Shown piece after piece: positions 28,056 to 30,011 of a stretch of DNA of 64,000 nucleotides (the first letter of the stretch is position 1; every line of letters begins with the position of its first letter). The notes under the pieces are model-generated. The model was given only the letters and a program-made list of their open reading frames with translations, had not been told where the DNA came from and did not search any database. The position numbers and the translations under genes were made by a program. Origin of the DNA: a virus; the IMG/VR virus record IMGVR_UViG_3300049016_000019, positions 238-64,237 of that record; one strand, written 5' to 3'.

Positions 28056-30011
28056 TTAGATACTGACGCCATGTGAGCGCAGCCACTGGATAGGATCATT
28101 AGGGGACGGGTACTGGTTCGCTGAGTCGCGCACCTCGAAATGCAGGTGCGGCCCTGTGCTATTGCCCGTACTGCCCACCCTTCCGATGACCTGTCCAGTG
28201 GATACGGTGTCGCCCGGAACAACGCTCCGGGATGACATGTGCGCGTACAGCGTGTACTTCCCATCTGAGTGTCGGATGATCACATGGATACCGTATGAGG
28301 CACCCCCCGAGGATGCGACTACGGTACCCGCTCCGGCCGCCTTGATAGGCGTGCCGGAAGAGGCTGCGAAGTCGGCCCCCGTATGGAAACCTGAACTCCA
28401 CATGCTACCGCGCGCCCCGTATGGAGTGGAGACGCGGGCCGCGACGGGCGCCACGTAGGCCGCACTGACGGGAGCGGGGGCCGCCTTGACCGGAATGGAC
28501 GCGGCGGCCGGGGCAGCGCCGCCCTGGGGCCGTACAACGCCAGCCACGGTGCCGCCACGGGTTGACATTTTCGACCAGTTCACGCCGTGGTTCGGATGGC
28601 GCGACGCGGTGTCGATCAGGTCGGCGCCGCCGGGGCCGATCGGCCCCACATACAGGGCCACGTGATCCGCATATCCGCTGAACGAGTAAGCGACGATGTC
28701 ACCGGGCTTGATCTGTGAGAGCGGCACGCGAGGCAGTCCGGCAAGCTGCGACTGAGATGTACGCGGGATGCGCACGCCAGCGGCGAGCCACGCCTGCGAC
28801 GTAAGCCCCGAGCAGTCGAACCGCGTCGGCCCGTTCCCGCCCAGAAGGTACGGGGCATCGCTGATCTTGCTCTTGGCGTAGTTCACCGCCACCTGAGCAG
28901 CACTACTGGGCGCGGGCGGGGGCTTGGGAGTTGATGCCGGAGGCTTGGGAGCGGGCGGCGGGCTAGGCGGATCTGACGGCGTGGCAGGTTTTCCGCCGAT
29001 GCCAGGTATCGACAGCCGCTGGCCGGGAAAAATGAGATTAGGATTGGAACCAATGATCGCTTTGTTGGCGTCATAGATCCTGGGCCACTCGGTAGCAGAC
29101 CCGTATTCGGCTGAAGCGATCTTCGAGAGCCAATCGCCAACCCGCACAACATGAGTACTCGCGCCCGAATTCGAGTCGGGCGCGGGTGCCGTGGGGGGCT
29201 TAGGCGCCGGGGGCTTCGGCTTGGGGGTAGACGGAGTCACCTTACCGCCCAGGGTGTAAGAGACATCCTGAATGCCCTGTGAGCGCGGCACGCCCAGGGC
29301 GTCCCATGTCTCAGGCAGAAGGTCGATACCGATCCCCTTGGCCAGGGCTCCAGAGCCAGGGCCACGGTCCACGACGGGGGCCGTGACGCTCTTGCCGGTC
29401 TTCTTACTAGTGATAGTGACCTGTGTCCCGAAGGGGACGTTCCACAGCGCCACACCCTTGAGCGTCGGCGGCGTGTGCCCACCGTTCGCGAGAGGCTGCG
29501 GCTCTTCCGGTCCGCCGAAGTAGGTGGCCTTCGTATTGATCGTCTTGACCGCAGGCGCCGGAGGCTTCGGCTTGGCGGCGGGCGGCTTGGGCTTACTGGT
29601 CGTCACGCCAGGGTTCGGACTGCCCGCCGCGAGTCCCCCGCGCACTGAACAGACCGGCCAGGCGCCTGGCCCCTGGGGACGATTGCCGTTCCAGCCTTCA
29701 TCAAGGACGCGCTCAGCGATGGTGATCTGCTGAGCTTTGGTGGCCATGTCGGCGCGTGGCGCGAACGCCGTACCGCCGTATGCCGCCCAGGTCTGATTGG
29801 TGAACTGGAGCCCACCATAGAACCCGTTGCCGGTGTTGATGCTCCAGTTGCCGCCGCTCTCGCACTGCGCAACCTTGTCCCAGGTCGCTACGGTAGCGGC
29901 ATCTGCGGTCGTTGCCGAGACCAGGGGGAGCGATACTCCGCCCAGGGTGAAGCCTGCGGTCGCGGCGATCTTTCGTGACTTTCGTTCTTTCGGCTTGCTA
30001 CGCCTACCCAT
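28056..30011 (-). CDS. rpf-like: Secreted five-domain peptidoglycan hydrolase: Rpf + RlpA/DPBB + LysM + NlpC/P60 + M23
   Basis: Signal peptide; [23 protein letters not shown]; VVDRGP..IDL; LysM; FDCSG..HVALY; HTGAD..HLH. Confidence 0.9.

Follow-up and report, generated by a model that had tools for sequence, protein, structure and literature searches.

Secreted resuscitation-promoting factor (Rpf) enzymes control how actinobacteria leave dormancy, the germination of Streptomyces spores included, and Rpf motifs in the tape measure proteins of mycobacteriophages serve entry. In Mycobacterium tuberculosis, glycan cleavage by RpfB is combined with the NlpC/P60 endopeptidase activity of RipA, the two being associating proteins. 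The Rpfs of S. coelicolor act as lytic transglycosylases and promote spore germination, their LysM and LytM domains enhancing the Rpf activity (PMC11356341). Here we analyze P0001, a phage-encoded protein of this kind, in which a signal-like leader is followed by Rpf, RlpA-like double-psi beta-barrel (DPBB), LysM, NlpC/P60 and M23 modules. Its gene is on the minus strand of a 64,000-nt stretch of DNA (positions 238 to 64,237 of the IMG/VR virus record IMGVR_UViG_3300049016_000019, 67,057 bp, rated 100% complete), the whole of which is called the window below. An earlier note on this DNA, made from the sequence alone, had described the product as a secreted five-domain Rpf protein with intact catalytic motifs.

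P0001 is an expanded form of the secreted Rpf enzymes of hosts and of a few known phages. Each of its modules is already known, and so are host proteins with three modules and smaller exported proteins of phages. With the host proteins (the S. coelicolor RpfD type, Rpf-LysM-LytM/M23, and those of Kitasatospora) it shares the leader, the N-terminal Rpf module, LysM and a peptidase module, and its Rpf, NlpC/P60 and M23 modules are 55-65% identical to theirs. The host proteins, in contrast, are chromosomal, have no DPBB and possess a single peptidase module, the two never occurring together in the 301 Streptomycetaceae genomes sampled. As in the RpfB-RipA pair, Rpf is accompanied by a RipA-type NlpC/P60 module, and the modules of P0001 match both the RpfB and the RipA structures (the title of 3ne0 is "Resuscitation promoting factor Interacting Protein A"), but here they belong to one chain with added M23, DPBB and LysM.

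Modules and leader of P0001

Four of the five modules exceed the Pfam gathering thresholds. The Rpf module (Transglycosylas, PF06737, aa 38-121) scores 109.6 bits with the threshold of 27 and matches the structures of RpfB, RpfC and RpfE (E from 4e-24 to 3e-19); LysM (aa 287-336) scores 22.7-25.6 bits (threshold 20.9), NLPC_P60 (aa 386-469) 58.7-62.3 bits (threshold 23), and Peptidase_M23 (aa 542-631) 111.5 bits (threshold 28.7), this last module also matching the lysostaphin and LytM structures. The fifth module, DPBB, is recognized by homology and fold, so that the five-module composition proposed in the earlier note holds.

The catalytic residues are all invariant across 18 relatives, whose identity to P0001 ranges from 48 to 95%. 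In particular, Glu51, the catalytic residue of the Rpf motif CESGG, and Cys50 are the same in 18 of 18 sequences, and Cys121, the partner of Cys50, in 17. The nucleophile Cys400 (motif DCSG) and His450 of the NlpC/P60 module are invariant as well, while the acidic Asp467 aligns with Asp or Glu in close relatives; relatives that lack a 4-residue insertion have Glu or His one column before it. In the M23 module, His543 and Asp547 (HTGAD), His591, and His622 and His624 (HLH) are retained in all 18 relatives. Judging by these residues, the module has the ligand set of an active metallopeptidase, unlike the degenerate LytM factors of the EnvC/NlpD type. The motif positions named earlier (E51, D215, C400, HxxxD, HxH, and ADA-A near aa 38) agree with ours, and the NlpC/P60 histidine, mentioned there without a number, is His450. 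The motifs for cleavage of both glycan (Rpf, RlpA-like DPBB) and peptide (NlpC/P60, M23) are thus intact, as had been supposed.

The DPBB module requires a separate discussion. The DPBB_1 family (PF03330, aa 192-252) yields 17.5 bits with the whole protein and 21.6 bits with the excised segment, below the gathering threshold of 28.8, and an NCBIfam search gave no match to the DPBB segment of P0001. When aa 150-265 were searched exhaustively with HMMER, 141 relatives of the module were found, the more distant of which pass DPBB_1 at 53-71 bits, and in an alignment of 41 sequences Asp215 (DRGP) and Asp230 (IDL) are invariant. The AlphaFold2 model of the module has a mean predicted local distance difference test (pLDDT) of 91.5. 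Its closest fold in the PDB is the RlpA-like barrel 4avr (PA4485; template modelling score 0.88 by target, root-mean-square deviation 2.0 Å), followed by kiwellins, loosenin, expansins and designed double-psi barrels, and the Streptomyces papain inhibitor 5ntb is also found among the fold neighbours (0.70 by target). According to the model and the alignment, the DPBB fold and the conserved aspartates are real, with the score remaining under the limit for strict Pfam membership. The conserved Asp is presumably the catalytic residue in RlpA, MltA and expansins.

This module could also be something other than a lytic transglycosylase, namely a glycan-binding or loosening (expansin-like) module, or a regulator acting in cis on the papain-fold NlpC/P60 module. 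We consider this tentatively, as a rather unlikely but still sizeable alternative. Besides the score below the DPBB_1 cut-off, it is suggested by the fold neighbours (expansins, loosenin, kiwellin and the papain inhibitor 5ntb) and by a fungal RlpA-like DPBB effector that is reported as a protease inhibitor (PMC7662947). On the other hand, the aspartates of DRGP and IDL are invariant over the 41 relatives, the top structural match is an RlpA-type barrel, and RlpA is a lytic transglycosylase whose catalytic domain is its DPBB and which requires denuded glycan (PMC6895207). P0001 shares with RlpA the double-psi beta-barrel fold and the conserved aspartate of DRGP, but differs from it in the absence of SPOR (no match in Pfam) and of a lipobox (no Cys in the leader), in the sub-cut-off Pfam score, and in having no close relative of the module in the Actinomycetes genomes searched; LysM is its sole binding module. 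The genome search for a donor, made with aa 155-262, gave no relative at E<=1e-8 in 41 Streptomycetaceae and 151 class-level genomes (192 Actinomycetes genomes in total).

Among the family homologues examined, the DPBB module is present in only five protein clusters. In P0001, P0002 and P0003 alone it follows Rpf, and P0006 and P0007 carry a copy, about 70% identical, before M23, where it adjoins an extra PG_binding_1-like segment. Such a shifted position reflects domain shuffling within the phage Rpf hydrolase family. The nearest stand-alone relatives of the module (P0123, P0124, P0126) are metagenomic proteins with an N-terminal transmembrane segment and a charged linker.

The four linkers between the modules consist of Pro, Lys, Ala, Ser and Thr by 70-88%, in line with the P/K-type linkers seen earlier. 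In the full-length AlphaFold2 model the NlpC/P60 and M23 modules are confidently folded and the linkers have pLDDT below 50; with the mean pLDDT of 60 and the predicted template modelling score of 0.31, the inter-domain arrangement of this model is not usable. Since the linkers rich in these residues have low pLDDT between folded modules, P0001 is organized as beads on a string. The only cysteines of the protein are Cys50 and Cys121 (the Rpf pair) and Cys400 (the NlpC/P60 nucleophile), a set consistent with one disulfide located outside the cytoplasm and a single nucleophile.

The leader has a net charge of +7 over the first 14 residues, a hydrophobic core at residues 15-33 and ADA-A at residues 36-39. 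The core is rich in Gly, Ala, Ser and Thr and only moderately hydrophobic (mean Kyte-Doolittle value about 1.5). Each of the 62 homologues whose start could be recognized has a signal-like leader, 27-51 aa long, and tblastn alignments to cellular Rpf genes start at residues 2-11 of P0001 and hence cover the leader region. The signal was called by a rule-based reading and by homology to host Rpf leaders, and on these grounds we strongly infer that P0001 is exported by the Sec pathway; the conservation of the leader across homologues also supports the earlier view of a single polypeptide with an export signal. Other ways of export or anchoring were considered and rejected: the Arg-Arg pair at residues 3-4 is 11 residues before the core and the twin-arginine consensus is absent, the leader has no Cys for a lipoprotein anchor, and the C-terminus has no LPXTG-like motif for a sortase.

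The frame upstream of the P0001 ATG is open for 9 codons only, and no sigma-70-type promoter was found upstream of the gene. Host rpfA is controlled by a cyclic di-AMP (c-di-AMP) riboswitch, whereas the 100-nt leader of P0001 (30012-30111) has no riboswitch in Rfam searches, either at gathering thresholds or permissive.

Relatives in hosts, isolated phages and metagenomes

In cellular genomes of Streptomycetaceae, three-module Rpf proteins were observed: Rpf-LysM-NlpC/P60 in Kitasatospora and Rpf-LysM-M23, sometimes in tandem, in Streptomyces. A search of the 301 Streptomycetaceae genomes with the NlpC/P60-M23 half of P0001 yielded no protein combining Rpf, NlpC/P60 and M23, consistent with the claim that host Rpfs carry fewer domains. 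Several candidates for cellular counterparts were rejected. The apparent full-length match in S. zingiberis (L083) is formed by two tandem Rpf-LysM-M23 genes, G087 is an ordinary Rpf-LysM-M23 protein, G047 has NlpC/P60-M23 without Rpf, and G026, G077 and G071 are SLT-NlpC/P60-M23 proteins encoded beside TraG/VirD4. The conjugative hydrolases of the latter type resemble P0001 in being proteins of mobile elements with a glycan module, NlpC/P60 and M23 in the same order, but they have SLT instead of Rpf, are located by TraG/VirD4 and possess neither LysM nor DPBB. They are analogous to the PrgK-type multi-hydrolases. Chromosomal SLT-NlpC/P60-M23 triple hydrolases of Streptomycetaceae that adjoin a gene for a TraG/VirD4-type coupling protein are those at L109 (9170-10792), L110 (9379-10929) and L111 (9622-11163).

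To place the phage Rpf domains among the cellular ones, a quick tree of 82 columns was constructed; many of its forks are unresolved, and it was used only for clustering and nesting. Phage proteins are strongly clustered in it (11 label changes, compared to about 64 when labels are shuffled) and nest, in three or more groupings, within the diversity of the Rpfs of Streptomycetaceae. Because of this nesting, the tree is consistent with capture of the phage Rpf modules from hosts, and it points to a Streptomycetaceae-like host of this phage.

Among isolated phages, the earlier note had placed Rpf domains in tape measure proteins, and this is mostly so: nearly all of the 216 phage records that contain the domain have it in a tape measure protein, from phages of Mycobacterium, Gordonia and Rhodococcus. 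These are virion proteins with the same Rpf domain family, but they have no signal peptide, whereas P0001 is a separate exported open reading frame (ORF) and the tape measure protein of its phage has an SLT domain instead. The statement does not extend to free-standing exported forms, which exist in three isolated phages. BRock (gp44/gp43) and GiJojo (gp173/gp174) have adjacent genes for an exported NlpC/P60 protein of about 160 aa and an Rpf-LysM protein of about 189 aa, in both cases three genes upstream of the endolysin, and gp63 of Rhodococcus phage REQ1 is a signal-Rpf-M23-LysM protein of 358 aa. Like P0001, these proteins are phage-encoded and have signal leaders and an Rpf module, but they are smaller or split, the modules Rpf, NlpC/P60 and M23 are not united in any of them, and all lack DPBB. 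Their annotations read just hydrolase, peptidase or transglycosylase. No functional study of the BRock, GiJojo and REQ1 proteins was found in the literature, a survey of Rhodococcus phages being silent on REQ1 gp63, and the literature searched yielded no description of phage-encoded free-standing Rpf proteins.

Megablast and tblastn searches against 50,697 phage records gave no match covering more than 26% of P0001. Homologues were surveyed as the best 120 matches in a collection of 5.8 billion proteins. Rpf, NlpC/P60 and M23 occur together in 90 of these 120 (by domain BLAST), mostly metagenomic proteins. The four-module form is thus abundant in phages known from metagenomes, while no isolated phage was found to have this combination. 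Among the matches listed, the contigs of metagenomic proteins with this combination are at most about 109 kb long, and those of the NCBI-named Streptomyces Rpf-LysM-M23 proteins reach several Mb. The Rpf module and an export leader are present in 121 of 121 proteins examined, with varying partner modules; the constancy of Rpf is partly due to ascertainment, as the protein used to start the searches itself has Rpf. The phage Rpf hydrolase family is a hotspot of domain shuffling. Three of its members (P0027, P0037, P0033) carry extra modules: CAP/SCP (PF00188), Amidase_5, and a second LysM or PG_binding_1-like segment.

Homologues were also found in genomes of other types. One is a phage lineage of about 107 kb (L003, L114, L115), present on dozens of contigs, where the hydrolase gene directly follows a TROVE (Ro60-like) gene, with TerD near and Prim-Pol and WhiB close. 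Its neighbours on the other side were considered as holin-like genes and rejected, being an endonuclease-like protein, a protein with a single transmembrane segment and a basic peptide.

Gene order of the late operon

The gene of P0001 is located between the tail and lysis genes (Table 1). The minus-strand order is terminase, portal, protease-capsid fusion, tape measure protein (with SLT), 1320-aa protein, DUF5047 tail protein, 304-aa protein and P0001, followed by a DivIVA gene, a small acidic ORF, a CHAP-LysM-PG_binding_1 endolysin, a 79-aa holin candidate and a strong terminator; no terminator was found between the tail genes and P0001. As the earlier note had said, P0001 is distinct from both the endolysin and the SLT-bearing tape measure protein, each of which is encoded by a gene of its own. 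It is not a canonical holin-dependent endolysin either, having a leader, and this role is filled by the CHAP-LysM-PG_binding_1 protein, whose gene abuts that of the holin.

The order of tape measure protein (SLT), a protein of about 1330 aa, DUF5047, a protein of about 280-304 aa, Rpf hydrolase, DivIVA, CHAP endolysin and r1t-type holin is kept on the related contigs L002, L100 and L101/L102, where the hydrolases are 94%, 56% and 52% identical to P0001 over aligned columns. Four relatives, with identities of about 50-95%, thus retain the position of the hydrolase gene, which is under selection in this lineage.

Table 1. Features of the window discussed in the text (positions are those of the window).
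Feature	Position	Strand	Basis or remarks
P0001, five-module peptidoglycan hydrolase with predicted export, coding sequence, 651 aa	28056..30011	-	ORF and Pfam
Shine-Dalgarno-like sequence GGGAAGAGG, 6 nt 5' of the P0001 ATG	30018..30026	-
Signal-like leader, aa 1-38	29898..30011	-	Basic n-region, core, ADA-A, no lipobox Cys
Rpf (lysozyme-like transglycosylase) module, aa 38-126	29634..29900	-
RlpA-like double-psi beta-barrel module, aa 157-253	29253..29543	-
LysM peptidoglycan-binding module, aa 287-336	29004..29153	-	Pfam
NlpC/P60 (RipA-like) cysteine peptidase module, aa 370-495	28527..28904	-
M23 (LytM/lysostaphin-type) zinc peptidase module, aa 525-651	28059..28439	-
DivIVA-domain gene, 182 aa, directly downstream of P0001	27482..28030	-	PF05103, 44.6 bits
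Small acidic ORF, 54 aa, between DivIVA and endolysin	27307-27471	-	No hydrophobic segment
Canonical endolysin CHAP-LysM-PG_binding_1, 301 aa	26405..27310	-	No hydrophobic leader
Holin candidate, 79 aa	26166..26405	-	Hydrophobic segments; Phage_r1t_holin at this place in relatives
Intrinsic terminator, end of late operon	26123..26157	-	15-bp stem and T-run
Tape measure protein with its own SLT domain (aa 1258-1331)	36133..40476	-
304-aa tail-region protein	30112-31026	-
1320-aa tail-region protein	32170-36132	-
819-aa protein, apparent protease-capsid fusion	45112-47571	-
WhiB-domain protein	6593-7222	-	PF02467, 26 bits (threshold 23.6)
Small MerR/HTH_17 protein	19356-19721	-
tRNA gene	1787-1857	-	Rfam RF00005, 57.7 bits
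Cro/C1-type helix-turn-helix gene	25398-25799	+	PF01381
Membrane-protein-like ORF	25799-26143	+

The DivIVA gene between the Rpf hydrolase and the endolysin is conserved in L002, L100 and L101/L102, and such a mimic of a cytoskeletal or polarity protein is unusual inside a lysis block. The 54-aa gene is also called at the matching place in L002 (11260-11424). The Cro/C1-type gene and the membrane-protein-like ORF are divergent and lie just past the holin terminator. Upstream of P0001, the 304-aa and 1320-aa proteins have no match in Pfam or PHROG, the former having a His-rich C-terminus (HSHS...SHTHHLEHQHT), and the 819-aa protein matches families of both head maturation proteases and major head proteins.

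Elsewhere in the window there are a WhiB-domain protein, extended at its N-terminus by a long segment, and a small MerR/HTH_17 protein (BldC- or excisionase-like), both of which are host-like developmental regulators. A tRNA gene is located near the window start, and no integrase was found among the large ORFs tested in the window.

Possible roles of the hydrolase

We suggest that P0001 is a Sec-exported, LysM-tethered accessory lysin, a reading in which we have about even confidence. It is favoured because the gene stands at a conserved position, heading the lysis block, in this phage, and its counterparts are near the endolysin in BRock and GiJojo. P0001 would have arisen from a secreted Rpf of the host type through the gain of further modules, and its gene would be transcribed together with the late genes, being the last of them before the block of DivIVA, endolysin and holin. 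The leader would carry the protein across the membrane and probably be cleaved after Ala38, the disulfide between Cys50 and Cys121 of the Rpf module would form outside the cell, and LysM would hold the protein non-covalently on glycan. The flexible Pro/Lys linkers may then let the four catalytic modules attack different bonds of one sacculus, with Rpf and the RlpA-like barrel cutting glycan strands, NlpC/P60 the stem peptide (of the D-iGlu-diaminopimelate type) and M23 the cross-bridge. NlpC/P60 enzymes of the RipA type are cutters of the stem peptide, and M23 enzymes, when active, cleave cross-bridges. Several bonds reached from one flexible chain should make the dismantling of the wall very effective. 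Acting from outside, P0001 may break down the hyphal wall, which is thick and cross-walled, in concert with the CHAP endolysin, a cytoplasmic enzyme that depends on the holin, and this would aid the release and spread of progeny.

Several observations weigh against such a lysin. With a complete pair of endolysin and holin already encoded by the phage, a second lysin is not obviously needed, and a hydrolase with four activities exported before holin triggering needs a restraint, none of which is visible. The fifth module may be no enzyme, as DPBB folds include non-catalytic expansins and a papain inhibitor. Moreover, the gene occupies different places elsewhere: in the lineage of about 107 kb (Prim-Pol, WhiB, TerD, TROVE) the gene of the four-module homologue comes right after TROVE, in a group of accessory genes, with an endolysin-like gene about 5.5 kb away; on a 92.6-kb viral contig (L004) an Rpf-NlpC/P60-LysM gene precedes the terminase; and REQ1 gp63 lies between primase and terminase.

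The location away from lysis genes in several lineages also bears on the alternative that survives best, in which P0001 is a dormancy-breaking factor. To our knowledge, phages cannot replicate in dormant cells. A secreted, hyperactive Rpf could keep the infected hypha growing or germinate neighbouring spores and stationary hyphae, so that progeny find growing hosts, with the peptidase modules boosting the Rpf activity and the release of muropeptides. We regard this as unlikely, with appreciable weight nevertheless. Rpf and the leader are the constant part of all 121 proteins, with partner modules varying around them, and the phage Rpf domains nest within the Streptomycetaceae diversity. The S. 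coelicolor Rpfs promote germination and are enhanced by LysM and LytM (PMC11356341). The same phage also encodes DivIVA, WhiB and a MerR/BldC-like helix-turn-helix protein, and without the c-di-AMP riboswitch of host rpfA the phage copy would escape host control. Still, the constancy of Rpf partly reflects the Rpf-bearing query, tethering by LysM speaks against a freely diffusing signal, and the place in the late operon by the lysis genes, here as well as in BRock and GiJojo, suits lysis better. A broader version, a little less likely again, is that phages of mycelial actinomycetes commonly secrete enhanced Rpfs to steer host dormancy, together with the DivIVA, WhiB and BldC-like mimics; P0001 would then be a viral "wake-up" cytokine and not a lysin.

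It is improbable that P0001 is the principal endolysin, of the Sec-exported or signal-arrest-release (SAR) type, kept inactive or tethered outside until the holin depolarises the membrane, with the CHAP enzyme as the accessory one. Such endolysins are established in other phages (Lys44 of Oenococcus phage fOg44, LysA of mycobacteriophage Ms6, Lyz of P1), and P0001 shares with them the muralytic activity expected from its modules, an N-terminal export signal, here a predicted one, and the operon with a holin, with which it is co-oriented. The Gly/Ala/Ser/Thr-rich, moderately hydrophobic leader core would also suit this type. However, the conserved AxA-type site suggests a cleaved signal rather than a signal-anchor, it is the CHAP-LysM-PG_binding_1 gene that directly abuts the holin, and relatives in other lineages have no holin nearby. 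Moreover, those endolysins are the only endolysin of their phage and have one or two catalytic domains, whereas P0001, with four catalytic modules, coexists with a canonical endolysin.

Finally, it is very improbable that P0001, as the product of the last tail gene, sits on the tail tip and pierces the wall at infection: the gene directly follows the tail genes, PHROG tail and tape measure families match its M23 and NlpC/P60 modules, and Rpf motifs of mycobacteriophage tape measure proteins serve entry, but the conserved leader of a cleavable type is incompatible with tail assembly in the cytoplasm, the tape measure protein already has SLT, the same family is found far from tail genes in other phages, and there is no tail-attachment domain, the PHROG matches spanning single catalytic modules only. 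A virion tail component had been set beforehand as one of the outcomes contrary to the earlier note, and it is made unlikely by the universal leader together with the variable genomic position in other lineages.

Whichever of these roles P0001 has, the main value of its analysis lies in bringing to light a phage family of considerable size, made up of secreted Rpf multi-hydrolases. Such free-standing exported enzymes are widespread in uncultivated actinomycete phages, with at least 90 protein clusters in at least three genome types, and smaller exported versions have gone unnoticed in isolated phages. P0001 fuses Rpf with a RipA-type peptidase, an interacting pair kept separate in mycobacteria, and appears to unite in a single natural chain four specificities for peptidoglycan cleavage, which is of interest for the design of enzybiotics against thick-walled actinomycetes. 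Whether phages use their Rpfs to lyse or to wake their hosts is now testable in the cultivable phages BRock, GiJojo and REQ1.

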